Origin: Steroidobacteraceae bacterium | GTDB taxonomy: Bacteria; Pseudomonadota; Gammaproteobacteria; Steroidobacterales; Steroidobacteraceae | Length of the DNA: 64,000 nt | Direction: 5' to 3' | Assembly (NCBI GenBank): GCA_036494165.1 | Contig: DASXOQ010000084.1 | Span: forward strand, 40,859 to 104,858 | Shown: positions 23,023-33,199 of the stretch, in pieces | How the letters are laid out: each line of letters opens with the position of its first letter | Numbering within the stretch: position 1 is the first letter of the stretch | Made by a program: the position numbers and the translations under genes | Notes under the pieces: generated by a model | What the model saw: the letters and a program-made list of their open reading frames with translations, nothing else | What the model was told of the DNA's origin: nothing | Database searches by the model: none

Positions 23023-23538
23023 GTGAGACATCCCGGTATGCGTGGCCTATTGCTGACTGGCGTCATTTTGACGGGCGCGCTGTGCGCGACCGGCAGCGCC
23101 GCGCCGCCGTCGCTGCTTGGCAAGGAGGCGCCCGACTTCGCGCTGCGCGCCATGGACGGTCACAACGTTCGCCTCTCGGAATATCGCGGCGAAGTGGTGC
23201 TGGTGAATTTCTGGGCGCGTTGGGAAGGTGACTCGCGCCAGCAGATGCAGGCGCTCGATCACATCAACGTCACCTATCAGCGCGCCGGACTCGTGGTGCT
23301 CGGCATCTCGGTCGATGAGGATCAGCGTCGCGCACGCGAGTTCGCGACATCGATGGCGGTCTCCTATCCCATCCTGTTCGACACGGGAGCCACCATCGGC
23401 AAGGATTATCTGCTGCAAAAGATGCCGGTCACTTTACTGATCGACCGTTCGGGCGTCGTGCGCTATTCGGTTGTCGGCTACAAGCGCGGCGACGAGCAGG
23501 CTTATTTGGAACAAATCCGCGCACTGCTGCGGGAATAA
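23023..23538 (+). CDS. Secreted thioredoxin-fold (TlpA-like) protein lacking the CxxC active site
   Basis: Clear paralogue of 12391..12897, with VVLVNFWARWEGDSRQQM in place of VVMVNFWATWCGPCQQEM and a shared C-terminus (...GYKRGDEQAYLEQIRALLRE vs ...GYKPGDENEYQDRIRQLIRE). Signal peptide present. Start is GTG 23023 or ATG 23038. Confidence 0.8.
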   Translation: MRHPGMRGLLLTGVILTGALCATGSAAPPSLLGKEAPDFALRAMDGHNVRLSEYRGEVVLVNFWARWEGDSRQQMQALDHINVTYQRAGLVVLGISVDEDQRRAREFATSMAVSYPILFDTGATIGKDYLLQKMPVTLLIDRSGVVRYSVVGYKRGDEQAYLEQIRALLRE

Positions 23539-23552
23539 ACGTAGGTCTTTGT

Positions 23553-24206
23553 ATGAATTTCAATGTTCGAGTGACCGTTCTTCTTCTCAGCGCCGTGTTT
23601 GGGCTGAGTGCCGCCGCTCAACAGCCGGCACCGGCCACGCCGCAGACGCCGGCGCCCGCGACGCAGGCCCCGGCCGCTCCCGCCGATGCGCCGCCGCCCG
23701 CGGCGCAGGCCCCAACTGCTGATGCACCACCGCCCGCCGCCGATGCGCCATCCGGAGACACCAAGACGCTCGATCAGGAGGTACAGGGTCTCAAGAAGGA
23801 CGTCGTGGACCTCAACAAGGATCTCTTCGTCCTGCAGGAGGAACTGCTGTTCCCCGCCAACACGCAGGTTGCCGTCTACGTGTCCATGGACGTGGGCGCC
23901 TTCTTCGCGCTCGACTCGGTGCAGGTGAAGATCGACAACAAGGAAGTCAAGAACTACTTGTATACCGCCCGCGAGGCACAGGCGCTGCTGAAGGGCGGCG
24001 TGCAGCAGATTTACCTCGGCAACGTCAAAGTCGGCAAGCACGAGCTGGTGGCGTTTTTCACCGGCAAGGGACCCGCCGAGCGCGACTACAAGCGCGGCGC
24101 CACCATAACTTTCGAGAAAGGCGTGGGGGCCAAGTATCTGGAACTCAAGATCACGGATCGTGTTCCCAAACACCAGCCCGAGTTTTTGATCAAAGATTGG
24201 GAATGA
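23553..24206 (+). CDS. Secreted Pro/Ala-rich + coiled-coil + beta-rich domain protein, function unknown
   Basis: Signal peptide MNFNVRVTVLLLSAVFGLSAAA. PA-rich repeats (ADAPPPAA x2), a short coiled coil (LDQEVQGLKKDVVDLNKDLFVLQEEL), then a beta-rich C-terminal domain. Confidence 0.7.
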   Translation: MNFNVRVTVLLLSAVFGLSAAAQQPAPATPQTPAPATQAPAAPADAPPPAAQAPTADAPPPAADAPSGDTKTLDQEVQGLKKDVVDLNKDLFVLQEELLFPANTQVAVYVSMDVGAFFALDSVQVKIDNKEVKNYLYTAREAQALLKGGVQQIYLGNVKVGKHELVAFFTGKGPAERDYKRGATITFEKGVGAKYLELKITDRVPKHQPEFLIKDWE

Positions 24207-24209
24207 TGC

Positions 24210-31436: not shown

Positions 31437-31927
31437 CCCCGACCCGCATCAAGCGCCATCGGCAGCGCAAGCACGGCGGCAGCCATTTCGCGCTGGTGCC
31501 TTTCATCGACATGATGACGATCCTGGTGGTGTTCCTTCTGGCGCACACCGCCGATGTGGACATCCTGCCGAACACCAAGAACATCTCCATTCCGCAATCC
31601 CTTTCCGACCGCAAGCCCGATGCGGCCATCGTGGTGATGGTCACCAAGGATCAATTGTTCGTCGACGGGCAGTTGGTGGGCAACCTCAGCGACGTCGTCG
31701 CCGATCAGGGTACGTATTTCGAACCATTGAAGGCGGCCTTGGTTGCGCAGAACCAGCGCCTGCTGGGGCAGCAGGCGCAGAGCGATGCGTCCAAGCGCGA
31801 AGTCACCATCATGGGCGACAAGAGCACGCCCTACAGCGTGCTCAAGAAGATCATGATGAGCTGCGCCCAGGCCGACTACGGCAAGGTCTCATTCGCGGTG
31901 GTGGAACGCGAAAGGGCGGCGAGCTGA
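31433..31927 (+). CDS. ExbD/TolR-family protein 2
   Basis: ATGA overlap with the upstream gene. FALVPFIDMMTILVVFLL is the TM helix with the conserved Asp. Confidence 0.9.
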   Translation: MTPTRIKRHRQRKHGGSHFALVPFIDMMTILVVFLLAHTADVDILPNTKNISIPQSLSDRKPDAAIVVMVTKDQLFVDGQLVGNLSDVVADQGTYFEPLKAALVAQNQRLLGQQAQSDASKREVTIMGDKSTPYSVLKKIMMSCAQADYGKVSFAVVERERAAS

Positions 31928-31928
31928 C

Positions 31929-32852
31929 ATGGCGACCGCAAACACCGCCTCGCACACTCCCACCACGCTGGCACCGTTCTACCGGCGCTACGAGCTGCCG
32001 TGGTCGCCCTCGGAAGAGATGGAACGGCGCTTCCGCGTCATCCTGCGCAACCTCGCCATCGCCTTTGCAATCATCGCGGTGATCATGCCGTTCCTGCCGC
32101 GCAACAAGGTGGTCGTGAACACCGAATCGTTGCCCGAGAGGGTGGTGCAGTTGGTGATGGAACCGCCGCCGCCACCACCGCCGCCGCCGCCGCCGAAGCC
32201 CGAGAAGATCGAGAAACCGGTGCAGACCAAGCCCGTGCCGCAGCCGGTCGACCCGCGCGTCAAGGCCCAAAAGAGCGGCCTGCTCGCGAACATGGACGAC
32301 CTCGCGGCATTGCGCAATGTCGACCTGGATAAATTCTCCGAGAACCAGCAAAAGACCACCGACCCTGGCGATGTCAAAGAGGTGACTCGCAACCTCATCA
32401 CCTCCAAGGTCGGCGGCTCGAGCGGCGGCATCAGCTCGCCGACGAGCTCCGGGCTTGCCGCCGGATCCGGTTCCTTGCACGGCATCTACACCACGCAGGT
32501 CAAGGATCCGAACCTTGCCACCGGCCAGGCGGCAACGCGCGCCGGCGGCAGCGGCAAGGCGTCCCGCAGCGCCGACGAGATCGCGCTGGTCTTCACGCGC
32601 AACAAGGGCGCCATCGATGCGATGTATGCGCGGGCGCTGCGCGACAACCCGGCGCTGCAGGGCAAGGTTGTCATCGAACTCACCATTCTGCCGTCGGGCG
32701 AGGTCACCAACGTCAAGGTCGTCTCCTCGGACTTGGGCGATGCCGAGTTCGAGAGCAAGCTGCGGGCCCGCATCATGCTCTTCAAGTTCGATGCCAAAGA
32801 CGTGGCAACCCTGACCGCCACCAAACCCATCGATTTCTTCCCCGCCGGATGA
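31929..32852 (+). CDS. TonB-like inner-membrane protein with AgmX/PglI-type C-terminal domain
   Basis: One TM helix (LAIAFAIIAVIMPFL), an 11-Pro run plus KPEKIEKPVQTKPVPQP linker, and the C-terminus AIDAMYARALRDNPALQGKVVIELTILPSGEVTNVKVVSSDLGDAEFESKL...FKF. That C-terminus matches the AgmX/PglI C-terminal (TonB_C-like) pattern recalled from memory. Confidence 0.8.
   Translation: MATANTASHTPTTLAPFYRRYELPWSPSEEMERRFRVILRNLAIAFAIIAVIMPFLPRNKVVVNTESLPERVVQLVMEPPPPPPPPPPPKPEKIEKPVQTKPVPQPVDPRVKAQKSGLLANMDDLAALRNVDLDKFSENQQKTTDPGDVKEVTRNLITSKVGGSSGGISSPTSSGLAAGSGSLHGIYTTQVKDPNLATGQAATRAGGSGKASRSADEIALVFTRNKGAIDAMYARALRDNPALQGKVVIELTILPSGEVTNVKVVSSDLGDAEFESKLRARIMLFKFDAKDVATLTATKPIDFFPAG
32163..32195 (+). 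repeat. (CCG/CCA)11 trinucleotide run encoding Pro11
   Basis: Eleven consecutive proline codons: ccg ccg ccg cca cca ccg ccg ccg ccg ccg ccg. Confidence 0.9.
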
Positions 32853-33199
32853 ACGTCCAATCTGAAATCGAGTTCTTCAGCGATCTCGGCTTGGTCGACA
32901 AGGCGCGTTTCGTCACGCGCCTGATCTGCGAGATCTGCGATGAGGCGAAGGTTGGCGCGGGCGACGGCAATGAGGCGGCGCGCTGGCGCTTTGCCAACGA
33001 GATGGCCGCGCGCCTGGCGCGCTTCAGCTACCAGATATTGAGCGAGGATCACGGCCGTCCGCAGGACGATGTGGTGATTCGCATGCTGTTGGGGGCCCGC
33101 AGCGACAAGAATGCCGAGCGCATCATGCACAACGCCTACCGGCGCGTGCTCAACGGCTTTGAGAGCTTCGATACCACCGTTCTGATGAACCCGCGCTAG
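32849..33199 (+). CDS. Small cytoplasmic hypothetical protein, last gene of the operon
   Basis: ATGA overlap with the TonB-like gene. 116 aa, no signal peptide or TM helix, no family recognised. Confidence 0.55.
   Translation: MNVQSEIEFFSDLGLVDKARFVTRLICEICDEAKVGAGDGNEAARWRFANEMAARLARFSYQILSEDHGRPQDDVVIRMLLGARSDKNAERIMHNAYRRVLNGFESFDTTVLMNPR

Follow-up and report, generated by a model that had tools for sequence, protein, structure and literature searches.

A probable Agl/Glt-type core operon preceded by a c-di-GMP-I riboswitch in a Steroidobacteraceae genome

What machine is encoded by the run of eleven genes at positions 23023-33199 of a 64,000-nucleotide (nt) stretch of DNA from a Steroidobacteraceae bacterium, and what might it do? 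The stretch (assembly GCA_036494165.1, contig DASXOQ010000084.1, positions 40,859 to 104,858; hereafter, the window) belongs to the metagenome-assembled genome (MAG) of a soil gammaproteobacterium with a G+C content of about 62%, and an identical stretch is present on a JGI metagenome contig. An original prediction, made from the DNA letters, had proposed that the genes form a reduced "core" set of the Agl/Glt machinery known from the Myxococcus gliding motor, a conserved machine that has been without a function since 2011. We found a gene set and domain content of this type, conserved as one block and headed in the window by a riboswitch for cyclic di-GMP (c-di-GMP), and conclude that the operon probably encodes a trans-envelope machine of the Agl/Glt type in its gammaproteobacterial core version, with a c-di-GMP-I riboswitch in its leader.

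The eleven open reading frames (ORFs), here called g1 to g11, lie on the + strand exactly where they had been placed (listed sizes 171, 217, 635, 934, 258, 172, 232, 168, 164, 307, and 116 codons). With the preferred starts of g1 and g5, and with the spacing to the next gene, they are:

g1, 23038 to 23538, + strand: periplasmic TlpA/ResA-like thioredoxin-fold protein (Pfam AhpC-TSA and Redoxin, NCBIfam ResA); +14 nt to g2
g2, 23553 to 24206, + strand: secreted protein with signal peptide, Pro/Ala-rich linker, long helix, and beta-sandwich; +3 nt to g3
g3, 24210 to 26117, + strand: GltC-like periplasmic protein with N-terminal tetratricopeptide repeat (TPR) matches and a C-terminal coiled-coil/helical region; -4 nt (GTGA) to g4
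g4, 26114 to 28918, + strand: GltD-like multi-TPR protein of 934 amino acids (aa) with TPR, YbgF/CpoB-like, and BamD-like stretches; overlap with g5, 47 nt if g5 starts at ATG 28872
g5, 28872 to 29615, + strand: GltE-like TPR lipoprotein with lipobox LLAGC; -4 nt (ATGA) to g6
g6, 29612 to 30130, + strand: small secreted protein, 172 aa, with signal peptide, repeat motif, and C-terminal module, no family match; +73 nt (30131-30203) to g7
g7, 30204 to 30902, + strand: AglR-like proton-channel subunit of the TolQ/ExbB/MotA family, 232 aa (PF01618); +27 nt to g8
g8, 30930 to 31436, + strand: AglQ-like subunit of the ExbD/TolR family, 168 aa (PF02472, 60.2 bits; transmembrane Asp D30 in PMIDMM); -4 nt to g9
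g9, 31433 to 31927, + strand: AglS-like subunit of the ExbD/TolR family, 164 aa (PF02472, 61.4 bits; transmembrane Asp D26 in PFIDMM); +1 nt to g10
g10, 31929 to 32852, + strand: GltG-like transducer of the TonB/TolA type, 307 aa (NF033768, TIGR01352); -4 nt to g11
g11, 32849 to 33199, + strand: small cytoplasmic all-helical protein, no family match

ORF coordinates and junction spacings bear out the predicted arrangement of same-strand, coupled genes with a single 73-nt AT-rich gap, which has a strong AGGAG Shine-Dalgarno sequence at its end. The ORFs exist as listed, but not all of their starts stand. For g1, listed from GTG 23023, the true start is most likely ATG 23038, a codon common to the orthologues; for g5 it is most likely ATG 28872, the start annotated on the JGI contig, giving a protein of 247 aa; g8 may begin at the alternative start 30951.

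A cluster composed of gltC, gltD, gltE, gltG, aglR, aglQ, aglS, and one extra gene without a Myxococcales homologue was described in several Gammaproteobacteria, one betaproteobacterium, Geobacter, and Fibrobacter, and was called a "core complex" of unknown function (Luciano et al., 2011, PMC3169522). The core complex of Methylibium petroleiphilum and the operon in the window share eight genes at a single locus, in one order and with near-identical lengths (Methylibium data from PMC3169522, Table S3):

GltC: Mpe_A1224, 634 aa (matched to MXAN_2541); g3, 635 aa
GltD: Mpe_A1225, 941 aa (matched to MXAN_4870); g4, 934 aa
GltE: Mpe_A1226, 243 aa; g5, 247 aa
Extra gene: Mpe_A1227, skipped in Table S3, length not listed; g6, 172 aa
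AglR: Mpe_A1228, 217 aa; g7, 232 aa
AglQ: Mpe_A1229, 170 aa; g8, 168 aa
AglS: Mpe_A1230, 163 aa; g9, 164 aa
GltG: Mpe_A1231, 371 aa; g10, 307 aa

This agreement with Mpe_A1224-A1231, together with the AgmX/PglI model passed by g10 (see below), supports the original interpretation of the block as a core set and refines it, in that the three TPR proteins map to GltC, GltD, and GltE by position, size, and domain type. The window differs from the 2011 examples in its Steroidobacteraceae host and in the c-di-GMP-I riboswitch at the head of the operon; it also includes the constant g1 and g2 and the facultative g11, which were not reported for the 2011 set.

Profile matches for g7 to g10 agree with the expected one ExbB/TolQ-like protein, two ExbD/TolR-like proteins, and TonB-like protein with an AgmX/PglI-type C terminus. 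g7 scored 82.4 bits with PF01618 (MotA_ExbB), carries the transmembrane motifs GLLGT and TxxGL, has TolQ chains as its only PDB sequence matches, and shows a median identity of 65% across loci. g8 and g9 are divergent paralogues (31% identity over 89 aa), each of which keeps the transmembrane Asp. g10 has, in order, a cytoplasmic tail that is short and conserved (FYRRYELPW), a single transmembrane helix, a run of eleven prolines, a linker conserved in part, and the C-terminal domain. This domain scored 65.4 bits with NF033768 (AgmX/PglI C-terminal domain) against a cut-off of 40; the GltG model came second (38.5 bits, cut-off 650), and TIGR01352 (TonB C-terminal domain) was passed with 31.1 bits against 27.1, a membership at the level of the domain, with the AgmX/PglI subtype scoring higher. 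At NCBI, the identical protein is named "AgmX/PglI C-terminal domain-containing protein"; at JGI, the homologues are named TonB.

Three TPR proteins, one of them a lipoprotein, had been predicted, and g3, g4, and g5 all gave TPR matches. The long C-terminal half of g3 is helical or coiled coil. In g4, four to five YbgF/CpoB-like and BamD-like stretches were found, over which the YbgF/CpoB model scored 121.8 bits; its sole PDB sequence match is CpoB, the TolA-binding protein, and "TolA-binding protein" is the JGI name for its homologues. By analogy, g4 is presumed to be the central periplasmic scaffold. The best NCBIfam match of g5 was gliding_GltE (E = 1.5e-12; 47.2 bits, cut-off 225), and no match to GltC or GltD was found among the NCBIfam models even at E <= 10. 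TPR content, order, and lengths of g3 to g5 match those of Mpe_A1224-1226, the comparison being one of position, size, and domain type and not of alignment. Several relatives of g4 are about 1500 aa long (P0180, P0189, P0201, P0220, P0255, P0259, P0265). P0180 is a g3-g4 fusion, aligning with g3 over residues 49-633 (33% identity over 586 aa, E = 5e-91) and with g4 over residues 658-1530. Judging from this protein, the one aligned to both parts, the long relatives appear to be natural GltC-like/GltD-like fusions in some lineages, in keeping with the prediction that GltC and GltD touch each other in Myxococcus (PMC11761067).

The small secreted repeat protein of the original prediction is g6, which has a signal peptide and the motif EAGEPRA(D/N)TS twice. 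In an alignment of 24 orthologues, a disordered and variable N-terminal part with one or two [LG]EPxV[DN]TS motifs precedes a conserved 65-aa module at the C-terminal end. g6 was present in 69 of 69 assessable loci and occupies the slot between the GltE-like and AglR-like genes, as does Mpe_A1227; it is the "additional" core gene noted in 2011 (PMC3169522). By analogy, g6 may be a GltF-like beta-strand donor. The short motif, which can also be written [LG]EP[GAR]V[DN]TS and occurs once or twice in the disordered N-terminal part, might be a peptide ligand of a TPR protein. By eye, the module LELDTTxITGNRELPKVLYIVPW..NSLLDEVLAPVD resembles the N terminus of a TonB-dependent receptor. The corresponding idea, that g6 is a free-standing TonB box plus plug fragment, was rejected as homology, since three profile tests gave nothing: a PDB sequence profile search, a Pfam scan of the 24 members, and a profile comparison with the N terminus of the receptor in the window.

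With the Agl-Glt machine of Myxococcus xanthus (the bacterial focal adhesion complex), the operon thus shares a stator of the AglRQS type, in which a TolQ-like protein is combined with two TolR-like ones; a transducer of the GltG type that ends in an AgmX/PglI domain; TPR proteins of the GltC, GltD, and GltE types; and, in the gltF position behind the GltE-like gene, a gene for a small periplasmic protein that is largely disordered. The GltA/B/H barrels, GltK, the CglB adhesin, GltI, and GltJ are encoded neither in the operon nor conserved beside it. Unlike Myxococcus GltG, g10 has no FHA or other large cytoplasmic domain, and the proteins in the window are much shorter, the GltD-like protein having 934 aa compared with the approximately 1200 residues numbered for mature Myxococcus GltD in a 2025 model (PMC11761067).

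The block is both widespread and constant. A phmmer scan with g4 of 1.84 billion cluster representatives (clusters at 50% identity) returned 1353 clusters at E <= 1e-30, most of them full-length proteins of about 930 aa with 36-56% identity; named relatives belong to the Steroidobacteraceae, Nevskiales, Chromatiales, Thiotrichales, and Candidatus Thiodiazotropha. When one genome per GTDB species was scanned, at least 583 loci with a g4 relative were found, and the synteny counts given here rest on the best 80 of these, searched by tblastn with the window proteins; a locus was assessable where it had enough flank. g1 to g10 were colinear in all 80 loci, in which the lowest g4 identity was 45%. 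Among assessable loci, g1 to g5 were present in 69/70, 70/71, 74/74, 75/75, and 71/71, and g6 to g10 in 69/69, 68/68, 66/66, 65/65, and 61/61, so that each of the ten reaches at least 98%. The occurrence of ten genes in one order in every related locus with enough flank indicates that the arrangement is not due to chance. The neighbourhood conservation expected of a core set was likewise observed: the TPR genes, one ExbB-like gene, two ExbD-like genes, and one PglI-type TonB-like gene stand together in 61-75 of 61-75 assessable loci. When neighbours of the related loci were screened for a conserved outer-membrane partner or cargo, only the genes u1-u3 described below (lineage-restricted), kefC, and ppc emerged. 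No annotated relatives were found on plasmids, and a PADLOC search for anti-phage defence (Zorya-like MotA/B) yielded nothing but a match to a generic TPR model.

The most informative new feature, mentioned in passing by the original prediction, is the riboswitch in the operon leader:

22882 to 22964, + strand: c-di-GMP-I (GEMM-I) riboswitch aptamer (Rfam RF03167, clan CL00126)
22965 to 23037, + strand: expression platform, the rest of the leader (from the alignment of orthologous leaders)

The aptamer, the sole structured RNA found in the whole window, scored 64.1 bits with RF03167 (Rfam gathering score 59) and lies on the sense strand in the 5' leader, 74 nt upstream of the g1 ATG (23038). 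Orthologous aptamers at the same position scored 48-81 bits with RF01051 (gathering score 35). A covariance model built from 18 orthologous leaders was then searched against the related loci; the aptamer stands at the same place in 24 others (about one-third), including that of the cultured Peristeroidobacter agariperforans, and an Rfam check of 14 further related loci found no riboswitch. Compensatory changes occur in 10 of 15 pairs of the alignment, whose cells pair in 99% of cases, compared with at most 51% when the partners are slid; these figures carry the caveat that the alignment was fitted to the covariance model.

Columns G14, A41, and C82 are invariant in the 18 aligned copies and correspond in the cmscan alignment to G20, A47, and C92 of the Vc2 aptamer. 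"GGC" in the name of the RF03167 variant presumably denotes positions 20, 47, and 92. At the variant-defining position, which is G in the model, all copies have the canonical A, and the Rfam label flips among orthologous copies between RF01051 and RF03167 (L015, L026, and L035 versus L033, L045, L047, and L050). An assignment of the window aptamer to the GGC binding-site variant was rejected on these two grounds, which indicate that the variant model also captures ordinary c-di-GMP-I aptamers. In Vc2, G20, A47, and C92 contact c-di-GMP (PMC4744006). Because the equivalents of these nucleotides are invariant and the canonical A is present, we read the aptamer at 22882-22964 as an ordinary c-di-GMP sensor. 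It shares with the Vibrio cholerae GEMM-I riboswitches Vc1 and Vc2 the aptamer fold, the G20/A47/C92 equivalents, and a place in the leader upstream of envelope or surface genes, and differs from them in that its best Rfam model is the GGC variant RF03167, despite the canonical A. In many orthologous leaders, a hairpin covers a GGUGAGG-like Shine-Dalgarno sequence and abuts the AUG, so that the expression platform looks translational. The literature searched gave no case of a c-di-GMP-I riboswitch associated with an operon of the Agl/Glt core.

Three genes of the operon, g1, g2, and g11, lie outside the published core list. g1 carries a signal peptide and scored 83.5 bits with Pfam AhpC-TSA, 74 bits with Redoxin, and 86 bits with NCBIfam ResA, the last under its cut-off. 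Its description as a thioredoxin-fold protein without CxxC holds for the copy in the window, which has WEGDS at the active site where relatives have WCxxC, but not for the family: 50 of 71 g1 orthologues from syntenic loci keep WCxxC, and both cysteines are lost only in the clade of the window. The loss is a derived state of that clade. The other operon proteins are nearly cysteine-free in CxxC-bearing and CxxC-less groups alike, so that a client of redox-active g1 would be encoded outside the operon; the redox-active versions hint at a cysteine-containing partner or cargo elsewhere.

g2, for which no Pfam, NCBIfam, or PDB sequence match was found, is the most conserved protein of the operon (median identity 71%, present in 70 of 71 assessable loci), and its C-terminal 147 residues are almost invariant within the Steroidobacteraceae. 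The secreted coiled-coil/beta protein that had been predicted is consistent with its AlphaFold2 model (30-sequence alignment), which has a long helix at residues 69-99 and a beta-sandwich at 105-216, with a predicted local distance difference test score (pLDDT) of 80-93. Attempts to derive a function from this fold were dropped, as a Foldseek search of the PDB returned only generic folds resembling carbohydrate-binding modules, transthyretin, and immunoglobulin (E >= 2e-3, low TM scores). Homologues of g2, among them P0386, P0410, P0420, P0425, and P0431, are named "AraC family transcriptional regulator" at NCBI, which looks like a propagated mis-annotation. g11 gave no family match in profile scans, is facultative (present in 39 of 59 assessable loci), and yielded a single-sequence AlphaFold2 model of low confidence (pLDDT 56.6).

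The closest rival to the core-complex interpretation is that the operon encodes a second, specialised Tol-Pal-type system for outer-membrane tethering or constriction and envelope integrity, in which g4 would be an oversized CpoB and g5 the outer-membrane anchor. The two interpretations overlap because Agl/Glt is itself Tol-like: the operon resembles the TolQ-TolR-TolA-TolB-Pal-CpoB system in having a stator of the TolQ/TolR type driven by protons, a transducer anchored in the inner membrane and equipped with an extended linker, TPR modules like those of CpoB, and a lipoprotein partner in the outer membrane. Indeed, TolQ and TolR are the best general matches of g7, g8, and g9, and the CpoB-type matches of g4 and its JGI name point the same way. 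The equivalog cut-offs, however, are missed widely (TolQ, 48.7 bits for g7 against 221; TolR, 44.1 and 27.4 bits against 127.3; TolA, 16.4 against 59.45; CpoB, 58.9 against 383). In none of the related loci does the block contain a TolB or Pal gene; the window has two different TolR-like subunits and three large TPR proteins in contrast to one small CpoB; and the C terminus of g10 is of the AgmX/PglI type. We regard a Tol-Pal-type system as unlikely.

An energiser of the TonB-ExbB-ExbD1-ExbD2 kind for TonB-dependent uptake, with receptors encoded elsewhere and TPR accessories as in Vibrio TonB2/Ttp, is less likely still, and we give it little credence. As was predicted, no gene for a TonB-dependent receptor or substrate-binding protein lies in the operon; the nearest receptor gene (42264-44819, - strand) is on the other strand, 9 kb downstream beyond unrelated housekeeping genes, and stands beside an ATP-binding cassette (ABC) exporter-type gene. 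Across the 80 loci, a receptor, binding protein, or ABC importer was found in the block in none. TonB loci for comparison are exbB-exbD1-exbD2 of Xanthomonas, with an ExbB and two ExbD genes, and ttpB-ttpC-exbB-exbD-tonB-ttpD (TonB2) of Vibrio. Such loci share with the window ExbB-like, ExbD-like, and TonB_C-domain genes in one operon, sometimes with a TPR protein, and g10, with its poly-Pro linker, passes the generic TonB model and has homologues labelled TonB. Yet its AgmX/PglI score is twice its TonB score, reflecting another subtype of the C-terminal domain; ExbB models gave 21.6-24.4 bits against cut-offs of 135-206 and ExbD models at most 33.7 against 123; and, unlike known TonB loci, the block strictly co-inherits six extra periplasmic proteins, a much larger conserved periplasmic set, and has no receptor link.

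Least credible of all is that the operon serves Steroidobacteraceae as a functioning motor for gliding or surface motility, the genes for the adhesin and outer-membrane parts lying elsewhere: the gene set is homologous to the Myxococcus gliding core and c-di-GMP riboswitches often control motility or adhesion genes, but gliding requires the Group A genes specific to Myxococcus and the core was stated to be insufficient (PMC3169522), no Group A gene is in the operon or was detected in the window, and g10, whose cytoplasmic part has only about 40 residues, is without the large cytoplasmic domains of GltG and GltJ.

As no equivalog cut-off for the Tol proteins, ExbB, ExbD, TolA, GltE, or GltG was reached, we consider the operon proteins to be relatives, and not members, of characterised systems. 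Profile searches placed them in no characterised Tol-Pal or TonB uptake system, and the best specific models were those of AgmX/PglI, GltG, and GltE. Several points nevertheless weigh against assignment to the Agl/Glt core. The cut-offs missed include those of GltE and GltG. For relating g3 and g4 to GltC and GltD, the basis is the published assignment of the same-sized Methylibium cluster, together with agreement in position, size, and type of domain. Synteny was counted in the 80 top-scoring loci, most of which belong to Steroidobacteraceae and Woeseiaceae. About two-thirds of related loci have no riboswitch, so that c-di-GMP control at the RNA level is not universal and is restricted to certain lineages; as to its ON or OFF sign, the accessibility of the Shine-Dalgarno sequence and AUG in 17 orthologous leaders showed no consistent difference between enforced and free aptamer. 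Neighbours of the related loci include no outer-membrane barrel or cargo gene that travels with the block. Finally, the function of the core complex was still stated as unknown in 2020, and there is no experiment for any core complex.

How far does the transcription unit extend? Two elements were found upstream of the leader:

22685 to 22712, + strand: intrinsic-terminator-like hairpin with a 12-bp stem (10 GC pairs) followed by a T-rich tail
22847 to 22852, + strand: TTGACA, a possible -35 hexamer read from the sequence; the aptamer follows about 30 nt downstream

The hairpin lies directly 3' of a 538-aa ORF (u3), whose stop codon is at 22678, which suggests that it closes an upstream unit, u1-u3, and sets the 5' limit of the operon transcription unit. 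TTGACA was missed by a consensus promoter scan and the -10 element paired with it is weak; its role as a -35 element is only a suggestion. At the other end, g11, the last gene, abuts a convergent kefC-like gene. The terminator hairpin behind the upstream gene and the convergent gene after g11 together make the block a self-contained unit.

The genes u1-u3 stand directly upstream of the operon (17289-22678, + strand), behind the strong terminator. The u1 product, of about 390 aa, has a signal peptide and contains the motif CIGCH; that of u2 (865 aa) combines a lipobox with two CxxCH motifs and a Laminin_G_3 domain; and that of u3 (538 aa) bears a twin-arginine signal. They are kept at the same position in about 46 of 61 related loci (Steroidobacteraceae) and are absent in Woeseiaceae and Peristeroidobacter. 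A MAG labelled Alcaligenaceae (locus L040, JAKFFF010000087.1) contains the full Steroidobacteraceae-type set of u1-u3 and g1-g11, reflecting either a binning error or horizontal transfer. Farther upstream, a run of envelope genes on the - strand (10941-16963) encodes a DUF3570 protein (a predicted outer-membrane protein), an SH3-domain protein, a weak OMP_b-brl barrel (12908-13789), and an 891-aa PD40/hydrazine-synthase-alpha-like beta-propeller protein; no link between these genes and the operon was found. A signalling and caspase-like neighbourhood at 311-8074 comprises a CHASE2-domain protein (311-1927), a Peptidase_C14 caspase-like protein with DUF4384 (1717-3570), an S-adenosylmethionine hydroxide adenosyltransferase-like gene, a Ysc84-domain protein, and a Ser/Thr protein kinase fused to TPRs (5381-8074, - strand). 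Glycogen/maltodextrin genes (phosphorylase, debranching-type amylase, 4-alpha-glucanotransferase, and phosphoglucomutase) are found at 48682-55319 (+ strand) and 61507-63471 (- strand).

If the operon encodes an Agl/Glt core complex, the most likely mechanism, by analogy with TolQR/ExbBD and with the 2025 AlphaFold-based Myxococcus model (PMC11761067), is that a proton-driven stator, expressed under c-di-GMP control, pulls on a TPR scaffold anchored in the outer membrane. In that model, the central pillar in the periplasm is GltD, which holds a disordered stretch of GltG in a groove and carries the TonB-like domain of GltG on its N terminus; GltE sits on the GltD C terminus; GltC touches GltD through two helices and binds outer-membrane barrels; and GltF, small and disordered, links GltC to the GltG domain by beta-strand addition (PMC11761067). 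Transferred to the window, g7 would form a pentameric proton channel around a g8/g9 heterodimer, a rotary stator of the AglR5-QS type. The transmembrane helix of g10 would dock on this g7-g9 stator, its poly-Pro linker crossing the peptidoglycan and spanning the periplasm, while the linker and the TonB_C-like domain would grip the GltD-like g4 pillar. The GltE-like lipoprotein g5 would tie this scaffold to the outer membrane, the GltC-like g3 would extend it outward, toward an outer-membrane partner, and g6, the positional counterpart of GltF, may be a bridging peptide. g2, joined in most lineages by redox-active g1, would contribute further periplasmic parts. Proton flow would then pull or turn a periplasmic TPR shaft under the outer membrane. 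Such g10-g4-g3 contacts would agree with the g3-g4 fusions and with the CpoB-like modules of g4, which are of the TolA-binding type.

On weaker grounds, the most likely output of such a machine is remodelling of the surface or outer membrane at the switch between free and attached life, for example, by placing or exposing a surface adhesin or polymer. A c-di-GMP input combined with the lack of a receptor, binding protein, or importer makes attachment-linked surface remodelling more likely than uptake; a role in nutrient uptake is unlikely, as the original prediction also held. A bolder proposal, which we consider doubtful, is that the ancestral role of Agl/Glt was that of a c-di-GMP-gated, proton-powered periplasmic TPR shaft deploying or moving a surface adhesin or polymer at attachment, a minimal "proto focal adhesion" that abundant soil and sediment Gammaproteobacteria (Steroidobacteraceae, Woeseiaceae) would use for unrecognised surface adhesion or translocation.

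Both the gliding motor of Myxococcus and its spore-coat machine are considered to have descended from the core complex. The machine type was already described in 2011; what the present locus adds is a fuller constant gene set (g1 and g2 beyond the known extra gene g6), natural GltC-like/GltD-like fusions, a very wide environmental distribution, and, in the c-di-GMP riboswitch, a first regulatory clue, which links the system to the transition between a free and an attached life and is open to experimental manipulation. With a GltD-like relative in at least 583 species-level genomes and more than 1300 clusters at 50% identity, whatever the machine does would be widespread in soils and sediments. 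Peristeroidobacter agariperforans, which is cultured and has both operon and riboswitch, is a possible test organism, and together with such a carrier, the new points make the question of the machine's function more testable.

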